A stretch of 64,000 bases of DNA, taken from sequence record OZ035799.1. One strand, written 5' to 3'. The translations under genes and the position numbers were made by a program. The notes below the pieces were generated by a model. It did not search any database, was not told where the DNA came from, and saw only the letters and a list, made by a program, of their open reading frames with translations. Within the stretch, counting starts at the first letter, position 1; each line of letters opens with the position of its first letter. Below are positions 7,839-64,000 of this stretch, one piece after another. This DNA comes from Justusliebigvirus alia.

Positions 7839-8432
7839 TTAAATCTTAAATTCTTCACTGTTAAATGAATCCAGTGTACGTACTTCTGGTTCTTTGGGAA
7901 TGAAAACGTCTTTTACAAAGCGGAACATAGGGAAACGTTCTGCCATTTTACGGACGTGTGCTTCTTTACCTGTGTATCGGTGATTAATAGTACAAATATT
8001 AGTTTTCAGTGCAAATTCAAAATCTGGATGATATACATAATTTTGACCATCCCAGTAACACAGGCAAATAGCTACATCAAAGTTCCATACGATTTCACTG
8101 CGTACACCCTCTTCCATGATCATAAAGTTAAACTTAAGATCTTTATAGTATGCTTCAAATACCCATTTCAAATGTGGTAGTTCGGCATAAGTGTGTTCTG
8201 TTTGCTTAGTAAGTTGTTTAACATTACGTGCACCAACACCCAACATCAAAAATTTCTCTACTAGTACGAGTGTATTGTGGTTAGGCATACGCAAGTAAAT
8301 GTCAATATCTTGCGCAGGTTTCTCTAATCGCCAGTCACGTACAGCGCCGCCAGCTACAATTGCAAACGGATCTACCAGTTGGCACATACGTAATACTTCT
8401 AAAGCTCGTACTTTTTGATCTTCAATATTCAT
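7839..8432 (-). CDS. minimal nucleotidyltransferase (GGAVRD...DIDIY; CCA-adding/poly(A) polymerase head-domain-like)
   Basis: Track ORF 7839..8453 starts at GTG; in-frame ATG at 8432 has AGGAGAA RBS. Confidence 0.5.
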   Translation of the reverse strand: MNIEDQKVRALEVLRMCQLVDPFAIVAGGAVRDWRLEKPAQDIDIYLRMPNHNTLVLVEKFLMLGVGARNVKQLTKQTEHTYAELPHLKWVFEAYYKDLKFNFMIMEEGVRSEIVWNFDVAICLCYWDGQNYVYHPDFEFALKTNICTINHRYTGKEAHVRKMAERFPMFRFVKDVFIPKEPEVRTLDSFNSEEFKI

Positions 8433-8440
8433 ATTTTCTC

Positions 8441-9037
8441 CTATCGTTTCCACTCTTTGTGTTGTTCTACATGCTCAAGCATTTCATTATATAGTGCTTT
8501 AAGATGTGGAACAACTCTTTCATCTTCAATTTCAAAGAATTTTGTAAGCTGTTCTGCCTTAGCCTTCAACCAACAAAGATGCGCTTCAATTTCAGTATTA
8601 AAACGTCCCAGCGTTTTCATGCGACCGTCTACTTTTATGTTGGCTTTATACTTTTTACGATCTTTCTCGTAACTACAGCCTACCATAGTCCCATGAGATC
8701 TTTTACTTACCCTATAAGCTAAGAACTTATTAAGATCTCCTGTTACTAAAAGACAGGTATTGGGAGAGTAAACTCTCCCTCCTATAATATCTTTATCAAG
8801 TTCTAAGTTTTCCCAGTTATCCCAAGTTTGCAACCAGGAGTAGAAATTGGAGAACAGTTTCCATTCTTCACAAACCGTCACCCCCTTATAACAAGGATCA
8901 CGTTCTTGTTGACAAGGGGAGTAACACCTCCCCAACATAGCCATCCATTTCATATAATGCGGCGTTAGTTTCTTACTACCAGGTAGCGTACTCTCGCCTT
9001 CCAAATCATTAATACCTTCACCATATACGGTAAGCAT
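8441..9037 (-). CDS. putative free-standing homing endonuclease (phage HNH/AP2-type)
   Basis: 198 aa; W..M..RC...Y...VCEEW..F..F pattern and AP2-like LGRFNTEIEAHLCWLKA; lies just downstream of polymerase gene. Confidence 0.45.
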   Translation of the reverse strand: MLTVYGEGINDLEGESTLPGSKKLTPHYMKWMAMLGRCYSPCQQERDPCYKGVTVCEEWKLFSNFYSWLQTWDNWENLELDKDIIGGRVYSPNTCLLVTGDLNKFLAYRVSKRSHGTMVGCSYEKDRKKYKANIKVDGRMKTLGRFNTEIEAHLCWLKAKAEQLTKFFEIEDERVVPHLKALYNEMLEHVEQHKEWKR

Positions 9038-9064
9038 AAAAACTCCTTTAAAATCAAAGAGTTG

Positions 9065-11644
9065 TCAGTGACAACTGGCCCATGAGTTACCAACATCGTA
9101 ACCAGCAGTGAGAGGTACATTAAGATTGTAATACTCACCAGCTTTATTAACAGCGATAGATGCTAATTCTCCAGCACGACTGTAGGCTGTAAACCAACCA
9201 CCTTTTGGAGATTCATGTACGTTAGCCCAAATCTTGCCAGTACGTTTCTCTTCCTCTTCTTTCCAAGCATTAACTTTATCCAAACATTCTTTATCAATTT
9301 TCTTTTGTTCTTCTGGATCATCAACTTGAGTCCAACCTAAAGATTCTTTAGAGAACCATTTAAAATGCACCAGATCACGAGTTACTTCAAGCTGTGCTTC
9401 ATCGTGATATGCAATCATTTGTTGAACGAATGACTTATTTTTCCAGTCATCAACAAAAAAGTCAACAGCTAATCCTTCTTCTTCGATAAGATCGTCGTAG
9501 ATAACCATTGCTCTTTTTGCACAAATAACACCACCACTCTGGAACAGAGAGTTAAGTATTGCGTGTGCAGATCGTGTAGGTACTTTTCTACCATCAATAC
9601 CAAGAATGTATTTCTTACCTGTTTTAACCCAAAAATCATGCAGACGTTCTTTAAGAAGCGCAAGAGGTTTTGCAGCTTCCCAGAAAGCATCGTATACAAG
9701 CTGTCCTGTATACATATCACTACCTATAGTTTTTGCTACTTTTGCAGCTTGAGCACCATAAGTAATACCATACTTAACAGATTTAGCAGGGCTTCGTTCA
9801 AACTTACGACCAATAGTGTCAGAAATACGTCGAGCCATCATTGTATGAACATCATTAGGTTTTTCCAACAATAGAGCATTACAATATTCGTGTGGTTCCT
9901 GCTCGTACCGCCAACAGTAGTGGGATTCTATTTTTGCCTCAAGAGAATCAAAGTCATAACCAATTTGGAAGTATTTTGGAACTTCTACACCAAATAAGTT
10001 ACGCATTTCATATCCGTACAGAGATGTTACACGTGGGATATTTGCTACTAACCTATGTTTCATACGAGATGTAGCCGCATCACACGTTGCAGCAGGAGTT
10101 GGTATACGACCATCAGCCCTTACTGCTGCCAGATAACCCTTATCGTAATCCTCTTCATCTTCTTCCCAATCAGCACCACCTCCTAGAATAGAGTTCCTAC
10201 GGTGTTTATACGTAAGATACTGCACAATCTGCGTAGCATAAGGAAACTTTTCACCCAGTGCTTCCAAGTTAGGACAAATATCTTTCTCTTGCCCTTTTGT
10301 AAAGGAAGGGTTAGTAAGCACTTTAACACCACGACCTTTAGCTTTAGCAATACGATCTCTTAGTTTCCATTCCAAAGTTTCTGGTGTGCACTCCAGATGA
10401 TCACATCTGTCCTGGCAGAAGTTAGATGCTAACGTTTGATCAACATAGTCACGAATAGCTTTCTCCATCTGTGCTTCATCTTTCTTAATCTTAGTGCCAG
10501 ATTTAAGAGTGATATCTTTATCTTTATATTCAGATGGACTCCAACCTAAACCAACTAACCAGTTTTTAATATGTGTAGTGTCGTCTAAAGTAGCAGGTAC
10601 TGTAGGATCACAAATAGGTTCTTCTGCTGGAATAGGGAGTTTAAACTCTTTACCTAATGCAAATAACCACCAACCATCTTCTTTTTGTACAAGTTCACCA
10701 GAATGTTTCTCTGCAAACTTTATCATGTTACTTGAAGGTTCACCATTCTTTTTAAACTGTAGTTTAGGTGGAATGAATGATTTCAAATAACCTTTAGTAG
10801 CAGGTTTAGGAGGTAGCACAGGTTCTGCCTCTAAACGACATGCTTCCATTCGAGCATCCAGATCACGAATATTATCTTCTGCTTGTTTCATATTGAAAGC
10901 AAAGCCACGGTGCTCTTGACGTGTAATAATATCCGCTACACGTTGTTCTAAGTTAAATGGTTCAGACCACTTATTATAATCACCCCACTCTTCCATCAAA
11001 TAACGGAACACTGCGGTGTTAGCTTTGTTATCGTAAATACAGTAATACAGCATATCTGCTGCAAATGTTTTAAATCTTTCAGTTTCAGGAATGTTTTTTC
11101 TAAAATCAATTTTAACATCCCCTCCAGCTTTTTTAGATAACTCTGCCAGACTATGACCACCGAAGCGATCAGGGTTTAGTGTCTTACTTAAGATCATAGT
11201 ATCACAAATTTCAATGTTACTATTACCCCAAGTATTGTACTTAATACTGTAGTTGAGTTTAAAAAATAATTTAATTGCCAGTAAGTCGAAGTTAATGATG
11301 TTGTGTCCAACTACTTTGGTAATTTTATAGTTTGAATTACCTTTAAATTTACCTGTTCCGTTTACAAAATCAGGAAAATCTTTAAGAGGGAAATGGGTAT
11401 ATTCTAAATGCTCATATTCCTCCAGTCGGTATTCATACTTTCCGTCAGTCTCAATATACGGACGACCATCGAAAAGATATTTATCACCATCATGGAAAGC
11501 AATAATCTCTCCAGTATCATGACTTTCGCACACAATACAGTGCATTGCAAAACTATCTTTTAAACGATATGGACTTGCCAAGTAATCTACACTTTCGTCA
11601 TTAAGCAAGTTGTTACTTTCAATGTCGAAAGTAAAAGCTCCCAT
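9065..11644 (-). CDS. DNA polymerase, family A, with 3-prime-5-prime exonuclease domain
   Basis: 859 aa; N-terminal FDIE exonuclease motif; strong AAGGAGGGAG RBS. Confidence 0.9.
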   Translation of the reverse strand: MGAFTFDIESNNLLNDESVDYLASPYRLKDSFAMHCIVCESHDTGEIIAFHDGDKYLFDGRPYIETDGKYEYRLEEYEHLEYTHFPLKDFPDFVNGTGKFKGNSNYKITKVVGHNIINFDLLAIKLFFKLNYSIKYNTWGNSNIEICDTMILSKTLNPDRFGGHSLAELSKKAGGDVKIDFRKNIPETERFKTFAADMLYYCIYDNKANTAVFRYLMEEWGDYNKWSEPFNLEQRVADIITRQEHRGFAFNMKQAEDNIRDLDARMEACRLEAEPVLPPKPATKGYLKSFIPPKLQFKKNGEPSSNMIKFAEKHSGELVQKEDGWWLFALGKEFKLPIPAEEPICDPTVPATLDDTTHIKNWLVGLGWSPSEYKDKDITLKSGTKIKKDEAQMEKAIRDYVDQTLASNFCQDRCDHLECTPETLEWKLRDRIAKAKGRGVKVLTNPSFTKGQEKDICPNLEALGEKFPYATQIVQYLTYKHRRNSILGGGADWEEDEEDYDKGYLAAVRADGRIPTPAATCDAATSRMKHRLVANIPRVTSLYGYEMRNLFGVEVPKYFQIGYDFDSLEAKIESHYCWRYEQEPHEYCNALLLEKPNDVHTMMARRISDTIGRKFERSPAKSVKYGITYGAQAAKVAKTIGSDMYTGQLVYDAFWEAAKPLALLKERLHDFWVKTGKKYILGIDGRKVPTRSAHAILNSLFQSGGVICAKRAMVIYDDLIEEEGLAVDFFVDDWKNKSFVQQMIAYHDEAQLEVTRDLVHFKWFSKESLGWTQVDDPEEQKKIDKECLDKVNAWKEEEEKRTGKIWANVHESPKGGWFTAYSRAGELASIAVNKAGEYYNLNVPLTAGYDVGNSWASCH

Positions 11645-48198: not shown

Positions 48199-48312
48199 TA
48201 TGATAATCATTTTCATTTGTAAATGAGAATCATTATCATTTAAGTATGTAAGTGATAATCATTCTCACTAAGAGAATGAGAATCATTAGCAAATGAGAAT
48301 TTTTCTCATTTA
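48199..48312. promoter_or_regulatory. cluster of five Fur-box-like palindromes
   Basis: TGATAATCATTTTC, TGAGAATCATTATC, TGATAATCATTCTC, GAGAATCATTAGC and perfect palindrome AAATGAGAA-TTT-TTCTCATTT; up to 13/14 match to GATAATGATAATCATTATC core. Confidence 0.45.
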
Positions 48313-57976: not shown

Positions 57977-58322
57977 GTATTCTTTTTTCACAATGGAAGC
58001 GACACGTAAAGAATAGGCGTAAAGGTGGCGTAAAACCATCTAAAACCGACTGTAACCGCTTAAACAAGGTAGGAATGATTAATCACCTTACCAGGATGAA
58101 AAAGCCGTTATAAAGCTATCTAGAGCGTTTAAAGCACATAGGAAATAATTTGCTTTTTATCTTGCCTTTTATTCTGCTTTTGATTATTATTATGGAACGG
58201 GCGGCACCTGGGGACAGGGGGAAGATAATCACCGGACGACCCCGCTATATATTGATAGCTAACATCTATCAAACAACAAAACATCAAAGAAATAAACTAT
58301 CAAATCTTTACAATCTCATCTA

Positions 58323-58351
58323 TTGACCGATAAATCATAGCAGTTTAATAT
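58323..58351 (+). promoter_or_regulatory. sigma70 promoter (TTGACC-N17-TAATAT)
   Basis: ~50 nt upstream of ATG 58400, after ~440-bp non-coding stretch. Confidence 0.45.
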
Positions 58352-58399
58352 TGTTTTTAGAGGGTAGAACATACCCAAAACGAAAACAGGAAAAAGAAA

Positions 58400-58636
58400 A
58401 TGAAAGAAGTCATGATCCTCAAAAAATCACCTATTTTACGTGGTGGCTTTATCGCTTACTCTGATGATCTGTTAATTGCAACGGTTGCAAAAATACTAAA
58501 ATCAGAAGAGGATAGTAAAAACGGCGTTTATCGTATCTGTTTCACCCGTGGGAAATTGCAAGGCAAGATCGCCTATGCTTTTGATTTACAAGATGTAAAT
58601 GATAAAATCTGCGCTGTTATTGATTATGCAAAATAA
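58400..58636 (+). CDS. hypothetical protein
   Basis: 78-aa track ORF. Confidence 0.55.
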   Translation: MKEVMILKKSPILRGGFIAYSDDLLIATVAKILKSEEDSKNGVYRICFTRGKLQGKIAYAFDLQDVNDKICAVIDYAK

Positions 58637-58648
58637 TTAACTTTCTTA

Positions 58649-58700
58649 TTGACACCGGATCACGCTTACATTATTATTTATCACGTAGGGCAAATCATTT
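58649..58700 (+). promoter_or_regulatory. promoter plus degenerate conserved element (TTGACA ... TATCACGTAGGGCAAATC)
   Basis: -35 hexamer; CACGTAGGGC retains 5-prime half of conserved element without stem. Confidence 0.4.
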
Positions 58701-58723
58701 TAAACGGTAAACGAGGAAACACC

Positions 58724-59107
58724 ATGAGCAATATCATCAACCTGGCAGCGACTGTAAACGGTAAAGACTTTAACGGCGCTGTAGACCGTGATCCTATGTG
58801 GTGCTTATCAGTGTTTAAAGGCGACCTGGTTGAAGTTAGAACAACCGAAGGGTATAGCGATGATTATAAATGCGAGATCCATTTACATAACTGGTACACG
58901 GGTAAAACTTATGCGCTGAATCACGCGTTTATCGGGAAAATTGAATATCGCGAAATGATCGACGAAGAAACGGGGCAAGATTTTAGCGATTATGTTTATA
59001 TTCGTTCCGAAACATTAGCCGAACGGTTGATCGAGAAAATGAAAGCAAAAAATAAAATTAATTTATCTCATTGGATTGATATAACAAACGATCCAGCTTA
59101 TCAGTAA
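58724..59107 (+). CDS. hypothetical protein
   Basis: Track ORF 58649 begins in promoter; ATG at 58724 after ACGAGGAAA. Confidence 0.55.
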   Translation: MSNIINLAATVNGKDFNGAVDRDPMWCLSVFKGDLVEVRTTEGYSDDYKCEIHLHNWYTGKTYALNHAFIGKIEYREMIDEETGQDFSDYVYIRSETLAERLIEKMKAKNKINLSHWIDITNDPAYQ

Positions 59108-59123
59108 ATAACATTCCATACAA

Positions 59124-59149
59124 GGGCGCAATAAGCGCCCTTTCTTTTT
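59124..59149 (+). terminator. rho-independent terminator (GGGCGC-AATAA-GCGCCC + T-run)
   Basis: Identical stem-loop to 53743; ends the small-gene array. Confidence 0.6.
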
Positions 59150-59354
59150 ACCTCAATAAAGATGATAGCTTTTACCTATCAAAAACGTTCACCGAAAAAA
59201 GTGAATAGATCGCGGTATCGAGCTAATCAAGGAGCAGATGAACAACCATACCATGAAGATCATAAGGCGCTTACAACGTGTTTTAGACCGCTTATTTTTA
59301 ATTTCTTCATGCAACTATCTGGCAAAAACAGCCTTTTTCTTGTCTTTCCTCTTA

Positions 59355-59430
59355 AATGATAATCATTCTTATTTATAGCTGATTATTTATGCAATAAACT
59401 GCATAATGCAATAATGATAATCATTCTTAA
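59355..59430. promoter_or_regulatory. two Fur-box-like motifs (AATGATAATCATTCTTA; AATGATAATCATTCTTAA)
   Basis: 12-13/14 match to Fur-box core, in AT-rich non-coding DNA. Confidence 0.4.
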
Positions 59431-59796
59431 CTTATGACCATCTAACCTATAAAATAATAAGTTATCTAACTAAATTAAAACTAATTATCTTACTTTTATT
59501 TATAACTTACTGTTACTATCTCATTGATAACCTTATATTAAACAACAATAACTAATATAAATCATTACTAAGCTAAATATAATCTATCTAACCTTTAAAA
59601 CTATAACTATAATCTATTGAATTATTGCACAAAGTAACTATTAAATCGTTAGTAACATTACTAAATAATTAATATCCTATTTATTTATGATCTAATCTTT
59701 ACCTTACTATCTATTACCTAAATAATCATTTTATACCGTAATCATTTCATACAATAATTATAACAAGAAATATAATTAGCAAGCGTATCATTAGCA

Positions 59797-59954
59797 GCCT
59801 ATGCCGGACACATAGGCGGCTAATAATAACGCAACTACACACCCCACATAATAACCATCACCGATAGTTATTATTTGTGCTTATGTAGCTTGCAACAACT
59901 GCAAGCGCAACAATATACATGGTATATTGTATTCCCTTACATTGTTGCGGTGCG
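59797..59954. repeat. nested inverted repeats (GCCTATG-N7-CATAGGC; ACAATATAC-ATG-GTATATTGT; GCGCAACAAT...ATTGTTGCG)
   Basis: Perfect palindromes read directly from sequence. Confidence 0.55.
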
Positions 59955-59990
59955 TTATTATTAGCTAATGTTTAGAACATTGGCTATAAT

Positions 59991-60063
59991 ATAAGCTATC
60001 CAATAATATAAGCTATCCAATAATAATAAGCTATACAATAATAATAAGCTATACAATAATAAA
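59991..60063. repeat. four tandem 17-18-bp direct repeats (ATAAGCTATCCAATAAT x2, AATAAGCTATACAATAAT x2), iteron-like
   Basis: Head-to-tail repeats in AT-rich intergenic DNA. Confidence 0.6.
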
Positions 60064-60227
60064 CATCGTGAATAATGATGCTGATGATCATAATGCGCCA
60101 CCTTCCAGGGCGGCGCTATGTGAACACAAAGAAATCTTTCTTGTCAAGAAAAATATTAACACTATTGCGCAAAATTATTTATATATGAATAGATGGTTTT
60201 TCATACTATTGCCCCTATAACATACCT

Positions 60228-60284
60228 CATTTGTTGCAATGTACCTTCCTATTTGTTGAGTATAGTTATAGCCTATTTGTTGAG
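60228..60284. repeat. three copies of (C)TATTTGTTGAG-type motif
   Basis: CATTTGTTGC, CTATTTGTTGAG, CTATTTGTTGAG spaced ~20 bp apart. Confidence 0.45.
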
Positions 60285-60353
60285 CCTACTTTCTTAAAAG
60301 CGCAATAAAGTAGAAATATCTTGATTTTTAGTCGGTTTTATAGTACAGAAAGT

Positions 60354-60377
60354 ATGCAAATGATAATCATTATCAGC
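60354..60377. promoter_or_regulatory. Fur-box-like motif (AAATGATAATCATTATCAG)
   Basis: Contains TGATAATCATTATC, 14/14 to Fur-box core. Confidence 0.45.
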
Positions 60378-60540
60378 TATCTTCCACGGGTAGCACTATT
60401 TCACGCCAGATCATTTCATTTGGCAAGGTGTATATAGATGTTTAGACTTGCCAAGCCATTGATTTACTTAGAATTTATCTGTTTTGTTGTGAGTAGTACC
60501 TTTCTTGCTCAGAAAATAATCAAAAGTCTTATAAGTCATT

Positions 60541-60574
60541 GAATGATAATGCAAATGATAATTATTCTCATTGA
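60541..60574. promoter_or_regulatory. tandem degenerate Fur-box-like motifs (GAATGATAATGCAAATGATAATTATTCTCATTGA)
   Basis: Repeated GATAAT half-sites. Confidence 0.35.
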
Positions 60575-60944
60575 TATTTGAGGGGGACGGTCGGCAGAAA
60601 TCGGGGGGCGCTGAAAATCGCGTTAAGCACCTCTCGCAAGCGAGCAGTATTTTGCGGCAAGTTATTGATATTATTGACTTTACGCTTATGAAAAGGGGGT
60701 GTGTCGAAATAAATCGGGTATACCGGAAAATTTTTGTGGCATAGATATTTATTTGTCTATATTATGTACAAAGGGGTGTGTTAAAAATATTAGGTATATA
60801 TAGAATAATTGATAGGGAAATCCTATGCTAATCCCTCCATTAATGATGTTCCTATGTTACTGTTCTTGTAATAGATGAAAAGACGCTGTATGATGTGTGG
60901 CATGAAACGTAAACTTACAACGTAAACTTATAAAGGAGTCTGAT

Positions 60945-61322
60945 ATGTGTGTTCCTCTTAGCAGTCCACTGCTGTTAGAATTTTACAAAGCATGGATGCA
61001 AGATCATTCCTCAATGCATCGTGAGAATGTTGGTTTGTGTATTTGCCTTATGGATTATCTGGCAACCACTATGTCAAAGAAAAAACCTACGCGAGAAGAT
61101 ATAGAACATTTCAAAATGGTTCGCAGTAAAACGCTGGAAGAGATGAAATTGCAATTCACGTGTGCTGGGCTATCCTCCTTCCTGCCCTTTAATGATGATC
61201 TTCTGTGTTATGAAGATGAAGGTAAGAAACATTCTTGCCATACTAACCCAGAGAGATTGCAGTGGGTGAAAGATCGTATTGCCGATTCATGTTTGGTGTT
61301 AGGGGGTGATAATGAAAAGTAA
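60945..61322 (+). CDS. Cys/His-containing small protein, paralog 1
   Basis: 125 aa; AAAGGAG RBS; motifs FYKAW, GLC.CL.DY, QFTCAGL, LPFN.D, CHTN..RLQWVKDRI. Confidence 0.6.
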   Translation: MCVPLSSPLLLEFYKAWMQDHSSMHRENVGLCICLMDYLATTMSKKKPTREDIEHFKMVRSKTLEEMKLQFTCAGLSSFLPFNDDLLCYEDEGKKHSCHTNPERLQWVKDRIADSCLVLGGDNEK

Positions 61323-61680
61323 TATTCCGTTGAGTAGTGCAGCTTTAATACGATTCTATAAAGCATGGATTGCCAACCATCCGGCAATGAATCGCACAAC
61401 GAGTGGCTTGTGTGGTTGTCTGGTAGATTATGTAGATGATTTTGTTGGTGAGGTAACTAGAGAAGAAGATAAAAGATGGCGTGATCGTTTGTTGGATAGT
61501 TTGAAATACGAAATGAGGAAACAATTTACATGTGCAGGACTGGACTACAATCTTCCGTTCAATGCAGATTGCATGGATTACCTTTCAGAATGTATAGACT
61601 TGGCGTGTCATACCAACACGTTACGTCTTCAATGGGTGAAAGACAGAATCGAAGATGCAAATAATGCTTGCATTGAATAG
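61312..61680 (+). CDS. Cys/His-containing small protein, paralog 2
   Basis: Track start is GTG at 61306; ATG at 61312; same motif set as paralog 1. Confidence 0.6.
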   Translation: MKSNIPLSSAALIRFYKAWIANHPAMNRTTSGLCGCLVDYVDDFVGEVTREEDKRWRDRLLDSLKYEMRKQFTCAGLDYNLPFNADCMDYLSECIDLACHTNTLRLQWVKDRIEDANNACIE

Positions 61681-61751
61681 AAATGCCTGTACACTGTGTT
61701 CCATAAGATATGCAATATCGCGCATAACAAAACTACTAATGAGAGGTGTAA

Positions 61752-62210
61752 ATGAAAACTGTATCTTTGTATCTTGCTAACACGGAGCGTGTACATAATC
61801 TTGTAAAAGAATGCGGTGTGAGTGTTCAATTTAACATAGGAACGCCTTCCGTGGTGACAGGCAGCGAGATGTGTGTTATTGATTTCATCAATGAATATTT
61901 TCGTGGGAAGCCTATTGCTCGTCACTTCATTCGAGAAATGCGAGATGTACAACAGGATTATGAATTCTACCCAGAAATTTGTGAACGCTATGAAACTATT
62001 CTTAGTTCTGTAGAAGATCCAGATACCAGTGAAACAGGTGTTTCCCACTTACTGTGGATGTTGAATGAAATCCAGGATGGGTGTAATGATATGTCTGAAA
62101 CCAAACGCCATCGTTGGCTAGGCTATATTCAGGGTGTTATGGTTATGAAAAACCTTATTACAGTTGATGATGAACGTAACGCTACGCGCCCCGTCTTTAA
62201 TGGAGCATAA
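61752..62210 (+). CDS. hypothetical protein
   Basis: 152-aa track ORF; GAGGTG RBS. Confidence 0.55.
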   Translation: MKTVSLYLANTERVHNLVKECGVSVQFNIGTPSVVTGSEMCVIDFINEYFRGKPIARHFIREMRDVQQDYEFYPEICERYETILSSVEDPDTSETGVSHLLWMLNEIQDGCNDMSETKRHRWLGYIQGVMVMKNLITVDDERNATRPVFNGA

Positions 62211-62211
62211 C

Positions 62212-62427
62212 ATGAAAAGCATCCAGGTGTGTATTGAAAATAATTGTGGTTATCTGGGATTGACACACGTTGCTTTCCCTCTTATGTTAGATGCCGATAT
62301 CGCTTACAGCGGAGTTGCTTATGTGTCATTCAAGACAATGAGCCAAGTACCTGGCTGGAAGTGGGAAGTAGTTGATGTTGTTGAAGGAGAAGACTATGTT
62401 TTCCTTCCACACGAATATACTGTTTAA
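62212..62427 (+). CDS. hypothetical protein
   Basis: Track ORF 62164 overlaps upstream gene; ATG at 62212 follows GGAG. Confidence 0.45.
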   Translation: MKSIQVCIENNCGYLGLTHVAFPLMLDADIAYSGVAYVSFKTMSQVPGWKWEVVDVVEGEDYVFLPHEYTV

Positions 62428-62441
62428 AAGAGGAAAAGAAG

Positions 62442-62618
62442 ATGGATAAACAAACTACTGTGTACTTAGTAACAAAGAATACCCCAGGCTGGAGCCAATG
62501 CAGCACTGTACCTTACAAAATCTGTGCAACATTAGAACTAGCACAACGTGCAGAAGCAGAAGTGAATGCCATGCAATACAGCTATGGTGAAATCATTCCT
62601 TTTACTCTTGAACAATAA
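62442..62618 (+). CDS. small hypothetical protein (58 aa)
   Basis: Not in track; ATG after AAGAGGAAAAGAAG. Confidence 0.4.
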   Translation: MDKQTTVYLVTKNTPGWSQCSTVPYKICATLELAQRAEAEVNAMQYSYGEIIPFTLEQ

Positions 62619-62629
62619 GGAGTTGTGTA

Positions 62630-63082
62630 ATGTTTGAAATTGGTAAAGTGTATCGTTTTAAAAACCCATCTTATATCCGTAAGTTTGCTAACGTGTCTGA
62701 GTGCAATAGCAGGATTGCTTCTTTTTTAGGTGATTCCTATTTTCGTGTATTAGATGTGGATGACTGGTATGGTGTCACTGCTTTGCAATCCTTAGCAGGA
62801 GAACAAGAAATTATCGCTCAAAATGAAGGAGACTTTCTTCAGTGTTACACGTTGCTTGCAAAAAGTGAGTTTGAGTATTTTGTAGAAGTCTTAGAGGAAG
62901 CACCAAAAAGTAAACACGAAGAGAAATACCTGCTTGTAGTGGATGGAGTTCCGATCATGGAAACCATCTCCCGTGAGGAAGTTGAAAAAGAGGCGAAACG
63001 TTACAAACTGGATCGTACACAGAGTGTAGTTGAAGTCTATTCTCTTGTTGGTGTTGCAGATATTCATGTGAACATTGTATAA
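62630..63082 (+). CDS. hypothetical protein
   Basis: 150-aa track ORF; AAGGAG RBS. Confidence 0.55.
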   Translation: MFEIGKVYRFKNPSYIRKFANVSECNSRIASFLGDSYFRVLDVDDWYGVTALQSLAGEQEIIAQNEGDFLQCYTLLAKSEFEYFVEVLEEAPKSKHEEKYLLVVDGVPIMETISREEVEKEAKRYKLDRTQSVVEVYSLVGVADIHVNIV

Positions 63083-63085
63083 TAT

Positions 63086-63298
63086 ATGTGTAATGACAGA
63101 TACATTCTTCGTGTATCTGATAAGTCTCCTATGTTTGACTGGCGGGGCTGGTGGCTACTGGCTCCGATGCAAGGTCTGACTGACGTGGAAAAGGAGGCTT
63201 ATGTGTATACAAAAGAAGATATAGAAGATAACCTTTATTTGACAGATAACATTAAGAATGGTATCTTTGAGTGTAAATTGAAAGGAGAGGAAGAATGA
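63086..63298 (+). CDS. hypothetical protein
   Basis: 70-aa track ORF. Confidence 0.45.
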   Translation: MCNDRYILRVSDKSPMFDWRGWWLLAPMQGLTDVEKEAYVYTKEDIEDNLYLTDNIKNGIFECKLKGEEE

Positions 63299-63594
63299 CT
63301 GTTACAGAAAAACTGCGTTGTATTGCAAAGCAAAGTGGAGAAGGCTTATGGTTTCCTATTGATGAAGTTATTCAGGACTGTTATGATCAGGCTAAGACTG
63401 GCAAATATTCCAAAGCATTTAAACCATCTGTTTTCGGTTTGGATGACTATCCGACAAATGAACAAGCAAGGAAACGCCAAGTTGATTTGATTGATCTTGC
63501 TATGGAAGCACTACGAGAGCGTGGGCTTAGTAAGGTGTATGCTTTAAACACCAAAGAGGGTTTTGTAGATTCAGTGATCGTAGATTGGCATTAA
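63295..63594 (+). CDS. hypothetical protein
   Basis: 99-aa track ORF; ATGA overlap. Confidence 0.5.
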   Translation: MTVTEKLRCIAKQSGEGLWFPIDEVIQDCYDQAKTGKYSKAFKPSVFGLDDYPTNEQARKRQVDLIDLAMEALRERGLSKVYALNTKEGFVDSVIVDWH

Positions 63595-63603
63595 GGAGAA
63601 GCC

Positions 63604-63972
63604 ATGCAAGAAAATAATAAAGTGTGTAACATGAAAAGCAGCCCCTATTTGCTACAATTTTATGAGTGGTGGTTAGAACAAGAAGATACAAACTTTAGCA
63701 AAAAGCATTATGGTCTTTGCACGTGTCTTGTAGACTTCTTATACAATATTGCTTGGATAAAAGATGTTGAGAATGTATCAAAGCTCCAATCCTCTGTACG
63801 AGAGGAAATGAAGGAACAATTTAAGAAAGCGGGTTTGAACCATTTACATCCGTTTAATACGGATTTCTCGCACTACTTTACGGAAACAGAGCTAGGCATT
63901 GCACACCTTAATAAAGAACGTGTACAATGGGTGATTGATCGTATTCGTGATATGGAGGAATACAATGGTTAA
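63604..63972 (+). CDS. Cys/His-containing small protein, paralog 3
   Basis: 122 aa; AAGGAGAAG RBS; shares FYEWW, GLCTCLVDFL, QFKKAGL, HPFNTD, ERVQWVIDRIRD with paralogs 1-2. Confidence 0.6.
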   Translation: MQENNKVCNMKSSPYLLQFYEWWLEQEDTNFSKKHYGLCTCLVDFLYNIAWIKDVENVSKLQSSVREEMKEQFKKAGLNHLHPFNTDFSHYFTETELGIAHLNKERVQWVIDRIRDMEEYNG

Positions 63973-64000
63973 GTTTAAAACTTTCTGTGCAATCACTGTT
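63965..64000 (+). CDS. 5-prime end of next gene (partial)
   Basis: ATG overlapping end of paralog 3, open to window edge. Confidence 0.25.
   Translation, partial: MVKFKTFCAITV

Follow-up and report, generated by a model that had tools for sequence, protein, structure and literature searches.

In this work, a 64,000-nucleotide stretch of Justusliebigvirus alia DNA (sequence record OZ035799.1; hereafter the window) was analysed with a focus on three small open reading frames (ORFs) at its end, here called P1, P2 and P3. Together with a fourth paralog, P4, located past the window end, they belong to a large and distinct protein family, here named N4 gp3-like after its member in coliphage N4, which has no Pfam or NCBIfam model and no relative in the PDB and whose members, in this analysis, came from phages and prophage-like genes only. 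We hypothesize that P1-P4 are dispensable immediate-early host-interaction proteins, acting in takeover or counter-defence and binding via variable surfaces on a conserved scaffold; we favour this reading tentatively and give it slightly less than an even chance. With a genome of 148 kb, the phage is a phi92-like myovirus (Stephanstirmvirinae), to which about 130 records of E. coli phages are related. Window positions equal the positions in record OZ035770.1 minus 32000, and 58000-64000 of the window corresponds to 90000-96000 of that record at 100% identity.

The three ORFs (122-125 aa) described in the earlier note are present in the ORF listing, and their homology proved highly significant and far from random level. 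Pairwise tblastn gave E 1e-28 for P1 and P2 (~47-50% identity, the lower figure coming from the same comparison), E 1e-22 with 41% identity for P1 and P3, and E 3e-17 with 37% identity for P2 and P3. The overall range among the three was E 1e-16 to 1e-29, and the remaining matches in the window all had E > 0.4. Their alignment contains 36 invariant columns and shows the motifs in the order that had been claimed. By searching all six-frame ORFs of the whole 148-kb genome with a hidden Markov model (HMM) of the family, exactly four copies were found, P1-P4, with scores ranging from 121 to 200 bits (P1 159 bits, P2 200 bits). P4 is more divergent (~30% identity) and carries a 75-aa C-terminal extension that is not present in P1-P3. 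P1 and P2 are mutually closest relatives. P3 (48%) and P4 (34%), by contrast, are as near to members from unrelated sources as to their genome-mates, and are thus old paralogs. In the relative Paula, P3 is annotated as Phi92_gp006, P4 as Phi92_gp010, and both P1 and P2 as phAPEC8_0019, all of them hypothetical proteins. The direct tandem arrangement of P1 and P2 also holds: the 3' end of P1 and the start of P2 share 11 nt, and translational coupling from P1 to P2 is possible. The ORF listing offers two start candidates for P2, at 61306 and 61312; the ATG at 61312 is most likely the start, as a GGGGG run precedes it and the same codon is annotated in the orthologue of phage inny (P0003).

The catalogue counterpart of the family is PHROG 2510, a cluster without function, structure or domain definition. 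P1, P2 and P3 match phrog_2510 (unknown function) with E 7e-22, 4e-24 and 1e-25, respectively, and all 122 of 122 diverse relatives match it as well (E down to 1e-31). The related clusters phrog_6418, phrog_27059 and phrog_2176 are every one annotated as "unknown function". The phrog_2510 profile has 219 positions, of which single-domain proteins align to the first ~110, and two-domain members exist: among 178 proteins, 14 natural fusions have a double domain and one has a triple domain. When 1.84 billion representatives were searched exhaustively with a profile, at least 1,126 clusters (50% identity) were returned at E <= 1e-3, of which 386 reached E <= 1e-10. Members are acidic and ~100-125 aa long, with a domain of six helices. 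The members are recognised by an ordered motif set, SS..L..FY..W, G-L-C-x-[NC]-L, EM..QF..AGL....PFN, Y..E and [C]-[HY]-x-N..R..WV, which P1-P3 all contain.

Scans of P1-P3 against Pfam, NCBIfam and PADLOC gave nothing above threshold, so that no housekeeping domain was matched. Among the 122 diverse members there were no Pfam matches and only two isolated NCBIfam matches at chance level, and the only match to PADLOC defence models was spurious (Cas12d at 12.6 bits for P3). Word-index homology searches with the prophage-type domain and with P0021, a two-domain fusion, were nearly empty. Literature searches on PHROG 2510, phi92 early genes, EaA, N4 gp3 and accessory-gene screens found no functional description for the family. 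Two candidate relationships were rejected. Crl (PF07417 / NF008217), a sigma-S binding protein with an alpha/beta fold, gave sub-threshold matches to P3 only, at FYEWWLEQE (Pfam E 0.09, NCBIfam E 0.012); the score of 13.1 bits lies below the Pfam cut-off of 27 and the P3 model is all-helical. Atd1 of Justusliebigvirus, a MazG-like enzyme, bears no relation to the N4 gp3-like family.

The structure prediction of the monomer that the earlier note had proposed was run on P3. AlphaFold2 (23 sequences) gave a model of six helices (14-25, 31-35, 38-53, 58-75, 88-97 and 104-121) with a predicted local distance difference test score (pLDDT) of 87 and a predicted template modelling score (pTM) of 0.81. 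Family members in BFVD align to this model at template modelling scores of 0.55-0.74, and the matches are uncharacterised proteins only, from phages of Rhizobium, Pectobacterium, Achromobacter, Burkholderia, Delftia, Shigella and Escherichia. A search of solved structures, characterised counter-defence proteins included, found no fold or sequence relative of the P3 model. Conservation was evaluated over 184 family domains sharing at most about 50% identity, in P3 numbering. Y20, P83, F84 and R106 are conserved in 99% of the domains, F73 and W109 in 97%, C39 in 96%, G37 and F19 in 95% each, W23 in 93%, Q72 and N103 in 92% each, and E68 in 91%. The conserved positions follow an i, i+3/i+4 helix-like spacing on helices 1, 4 and 6, and S13, N85 and N103, which directly precede predicted helix starts, could be N-caps in the model. 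It is thus probable, from this spacing and the possible N-caps, that much of the motif set defines the scaffold. Furthermore, three segments are hypervariable in both sequence and length: 24-36 (4-26 residues), 43-67 (12-32) and 86-102 (7-25).

The slot occupied by P1 and P2 varies like a cassette. At least 80% of the P1+P2 segment is present in only 19 of 120 related phages, and most Phapecoctavirus phages have P2 alone; among close relatives the slot is absent or holds a single P1/P2 hybrid, two copies or three. In EC.P2, one hybrid gene joins a P1 body to a P2 tail (327-692 of the stretch examined), with the junction in the stretch coding for RLQWVKDRI. In phage cardinal, P1 and P2 are deleted save the last ~50 nt of P2 (2501-2549 of the stretch examined), and P3 is kept. 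ZCKP1 has two divergent members with different gene bodies and the same tail, and in phiWec179 and ZCKP1 the family members come first after the same leader, differing in number and sequence. The P2 C-terminal tail RIEDANNACIE is kept across the cassette variants of EC.P2 and ZCKP1. The loss in cardinal, together with the hybrid and replacement variants, indicates that P1 and P2 are dispensable and variable among close relatives, and that the slot is remodelled by recombination between paralogs, which takes place within the conserved 3' motif. P2 orthologues of alia and phiWec179 have a ratio of nonsynonymous to synonymous substitution rates (dN/dS) of ~0.19, i.e., they are under purifying selection; alia and Paula show too few differences for this ratio, and the paralog pairs are saturated at synonymous sites. 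The diversity arises by cassette replacement and not by detectable positive selection.

P1-P4 occupy the opening ~4.3 kb of an extended series of small + strand genes, past an AT-rich leader that is presumed to be the regulatory region of an early operon headed by P1. A leading-end or early position recurs for the family in N4 (gp3), RHph_TM33, Fifi287, phiWec179 and ZCKP1. In the Rhizobium T7-like phage RHph_TM33, genes 2 and 3 (0.2-1.5 kb) are members and gene 3 has a double domain, and in the N4-like Erwinia phage Fifi287 the early-gene member adjoins a subunit of RNA polymerase (RNAP). Multi-copy arrays have arisen independently: the T4-like Yersinia phage JC221 has four consecutive member genes in tandem downstream of DNA ligase, and phiWec179 has three tandem members plus more. 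Up to seven copies per genome occur elsewhere, and tblastn matches were additionally found in T1-like phages and Akiravirus.

Moreover, the N4 gp3-like domain forms the central module of the Ea-type mosaic proteins P0143, P0144, P0146 and P0160, which share their N- and C-terminal modules with annotated EaA, Eaa and EaD proteins of P22-like phages (Lederbergvirus). In the P22-like Salmonella phage GE_vB_TR, domain-bearing ORFs lie ~1 kb upstream of an integrase-like ORF. The statement that the EaA protein contains the domain is true for GE_vB_TR and the other EaA-module mosaics and false for the annotated EaA of Salmonella phage SEN22 (3001-3936 of the stretch examined), in which a dATP/dGTP pyrophosphohydrolase (PF04447) occupies the slot of the N4 gp3-like domain. 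SEN22 EaA and P0160 begin with identical N-terminal modules of 44 residues and continue with PF04447 and the N4 gp3-like domain, respectively, i.e., there is payload swapping within the Ea-type mosaic proteins. The PF04447 module and the N4 gp3-like family are not homologous (hhalign probability 0.2%). No function assigned to EaA proteins is known to us, and a literature search on EaA yielded none.

According to the reading that we favour, P1-P4 would be made in the first minutes of infection and would act by binding and not by a housekeeping activity. The aromatic core faces of helices 1, 4 and 6, with S13, N85 and N103 as possible N-caps, would form a rigid scaffold bearing the near-invariant polar residues Y20, C39, E68, Q72, R106 and usually H101, and this scaffold would present the three hypervariable segments, the third taken here as 86-100. 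Each paralog would thereby engage its own target in the host or its defences, or its own variant of a single ligand. Because natural two- and three-domain fusions exist, the domains are suggested to work side by side, possibly as P1-P2 heterodimers. The proposal of the earlier note that such genes encode inhibitors of host or defence proteins is plausible and fits the context, namely the head of an early operon, a dispensable cassette-like slot and multi-copy arrays in unrelated phage lineages. Immediate-early expression is inferred from the genome position of the genes and from the position of N4 gp3; the host-interaction role is an inference as well.

Several points weigh against this reading. 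No homology to any characterised inhibitor, sponge or takeover factor was found, and whole-gene dN/dS gave no sign of positive selection. The early timing is taken from genome position and the N4 paradigm. In addition, the two-domain model of the fusion P0021, made to examine how the domains pack against each other, reached a pTM of only 0.64, and its N-terminal domain, with a pLDDT of ~50, was covered by two full-length sequences only. Finally, C39, R106, E68, Q72 and N103 are conserved (91-99%) across phages of very different proteobacterial hosts, a pattern that a catalytic site or a small conserved ligand explains no less well than diversified protein-protein binding does.

The last point leads to a ligand-binding or catalytic module, in which C39, H/Y101, N103, E68, Q72, R106 and Y20 would form a putative pocket. 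The pocket would bind or chemically alter some small molecule that Proteobacteria share, for instance a cofactor or a nucleotide-derived signal, and the paralogs would differ in ligand preference. We consider this rather unlikely, and we keep it at that level mainly because a structural role alone does not explain why C39 is nearly invariant. In its favour, the conservation of these polar and aromatic residues is very high throughout the 184 domains; the GLC, PFN and (C)H.N motifs stand at loop-to-helix junctions of the model and could converge at one end of the bundle; and in the SEN22 EaA architecture the domain fills the slot of an all-alpha pyrophosphohydrolase behind the identical N-terminal module. 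However, no enzyme or sponge of known structure was matched and the comparison with PF04447 was negative; H101 is substituted in 29% of the members; S13, N85 and N103 may be structural N-caps; and up to seven copies per genome would be unusual for sponges or enzymes. It is about as doubtful that the N4 gp3-like domain represents a previously unrecognised phage fold and a new immediate-early effector class whose basis is a conserved pocket containing Cys; such an effector might, for instance, bind, sense or modify a host metabolite or signalling nucleotide that is itself conserved. The paralog arrays, four copies here and up to seven elsewhere, would then be a specificity panel reshuffled by recombination at the conserved 3' motif.

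Metal binding was suggested in the earlier note from conserved Cys and His residues, and a Cys/His zinc-binding domain with a central metal site (structural zinc, possibly nucleic-acid binding or regulatory) has some support in the paralogs themselves. P1 and P2 have C, C, C and H at positions 39, 41, 100 and 101, P3 has C, C, - and H, and both motifs are at or beside predicted helix starts. Across the 184 domains, C39 (GLC) is the sole family-wide one among these four candidate ligands. Position 41 is Cys in 20% and Asn in 65%, position 100 is Cys in 54%, and position 101 is His in 71% and Tyr in 12%. Cys or His occupies all four positions in 20 of the 184 domains (19 with the CCCH pattern, P1 and P2 included) and at most two positions in 96, and the most frequent pattern is C-N-C-H. 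C41 and H101 tend to occur together (odds ratio 6, p = 0.001, phylogeny not corrected for), but C41 is not associated with C100 (Fisher p = 0.58). Moreover, the proteins are acidic (isoelectric points 5.2-5.9), and no zinc-finger or helix-turn-helix family was matched in the Pfam scans of P1-P3 and the 122 relatives. Since the four-ligand set is rare across the family, a zinc site is not a family feature, and we regard a domain organised around a metal as improbable. What stands of the suggestion is a possible subfamily site in P1 and P2 only, which their residue pattern weakly supports.

We consider it quite improbable that the paralogs act in competition between phages or superinfection exclusion, or that they regulate the early-to-middle switch of the phage itself, instead of being anti-host factors. 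Such roles would suit a place at the head of the early operon just as well, and the domain also occurs in a gene from the ea region of a P22-like temperate phage. On the other hand, viable relatives without P1 and P2 make an essential regulatory role of these two unlikely, and neither DNA-binding features nor signal or transmembrane segments were found in the domain. Dispensable host-interaction proteins remain the reading that we favour for P1-P4, and the coordinates of the genes and of the leader elements are collected below.

Table 1. Paralogous genes P1-P4 and elements of the leader (window positions unless a record is named)
Feature	Position	Strand	Description
P1	60945..61322	+	125 aa; AAGGAG before ATG; first gene past the 1.8-kb leader; CCCH at the candidate ligand positions
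P2	61312..61680	+	122 aa; GGGGG run 7 nt before ATG; CCCH pattern
P3	63604..63972	+	122 aa; AAGGAG 6 nt upstream; CC-H pattern; phi92 gp006 orthologue
P4	OZ035770.1 96596-97180, ~600 nt beyond the window end		194 aa; phi92 gp010 orthologue
Leader	59110..60944		AT-rich, non-coding, 1.8 kb, upstream of the paralog cluster (sequence, terminator scan)
Fur-box-like palindromes	59355, 59413, 60356-60374, 60554		within the leader
Tandem repeats	59991-60062		four head-to-tail 18-nt units ATAAGCTAT(C/A)CAATAATAA within the leader

The leader follows a terminator-like hairpin (59122-59142) and contains tandem repeats of iteron-like look. With up to three mismatches allowed, the E. coli Fur consensus GATAATGATAATCATTATC was matched at four sites (48219, 48272, 59410 and 60356), against 0.02 expected from shuffles, the best being 60356-60374, with two mismatches. 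The Fur core AATGATAATNATTMT gave 10 matches against 0.26 expected. The Fur-box-like palindromes fall within 48219-48290 and 59355-60572. The motif is found again in this leader in Paula, phiWec179, cardinal and ZCKP1. Its distance from the first family gene downstream, ~360-377 nt in phiWec179 and ZCKP1, agrees with that in alia. These candidate sites could make early transcription responsive to iron and Fur, or they could serve as a phage operator with only the appearance of a Fur box. A literature search turned up no account of such boxes in lytic phages.

The neighbours of P1-P4 are all of unknown function and show weak similarities only. The N-terminal part of a 150-aa protein (62630-63082) weakly resembles the T4 mRNA-metabolism modulator GoF (phrog_2980, E 3e-6), and a 74-aa Cys-rich early gene near P4 is weakly similar to Lar-like restriction alleviation proteins (phrog_3592, E 8e-4; 8194-8418 of a downstream stretch on which P4 is 8597-9181). 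Just upstream of the leader, 58724-59107 encodes a homologue of T4 gp30.8 (PF06019, E 4e-29), and another gp30.8 homologue shares a short contig with a family member. In T4, the gene 30.x cluster lies just downstream of DNA ligase, as the JC221 array does, and gp30.8 and the family members may form a recurrent neighbourhood. Elsewhere in the window, the GC skew changes from negative to positive around 43-44 kb, which may reflect a switch of the coding strand between divergent gene blocks. Five "Campylobacter phage" records (~146 kb, host C. jejuni; including MG065639, MG065645, MG065656 and MG065689) match 99% of 6 kb at 95.8% identity, which is likely host mis-assignment or contamination.

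The family was already catalogued as PHROG 2510, and its proteins had been deposited as hypotheticals. What is newly supplied for a family that is blank in the domain libraries is a name and boundaries, the motifs that define it, a confidently predicted fold and a tractable member in a model phage, N4 gp3. In several unrelated lineages of phages the family lies in the DNA that enters the cell first, and near-identical phages exchange it as a cassette; both properties recommend it as a place to look for new activities in host takeover or counter-defence. Alia (P1 and P2 present), EC.P2 (hybrid gene) and cardinal (both absent) provide natural near-isogenic comparators. Should the genes prove to be without phenotype, they would represent just another family of small accessory phage genes.

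Among known systems, the closest comparison is with coliphage N4. Its gp3 (ABK54374.1; genome position 1214-1528) scores 71 bits against the family HMM, has the motif order GLC, PFN, CHLN..R..W and is the third gene of the early region, within ~1.5 kb of the left end. It differs from the alia genes in being single-copy. In N4, the injected virion RNAP transcribes the early region (PMC4496689); the phi92-like leader, by contrast, looks dependent on host promoters. No description of the function of gp3 was found in the N4 review (PMC4496689) or in literature searches. By comparing the family with small counter-defence proteins, for example the nucleotide sponges Acb2, Tad1 and Tad2 and the inhibitor Ocr, a difference and a likeness are seen. 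The N4 gp3-like family is without sequence or fold similarity to any solved structure, and the likeness is one of genomic behaviour only: as with those proteins, its members are small, early and accessory, are patchily distributed and occupy variable hot-spots.

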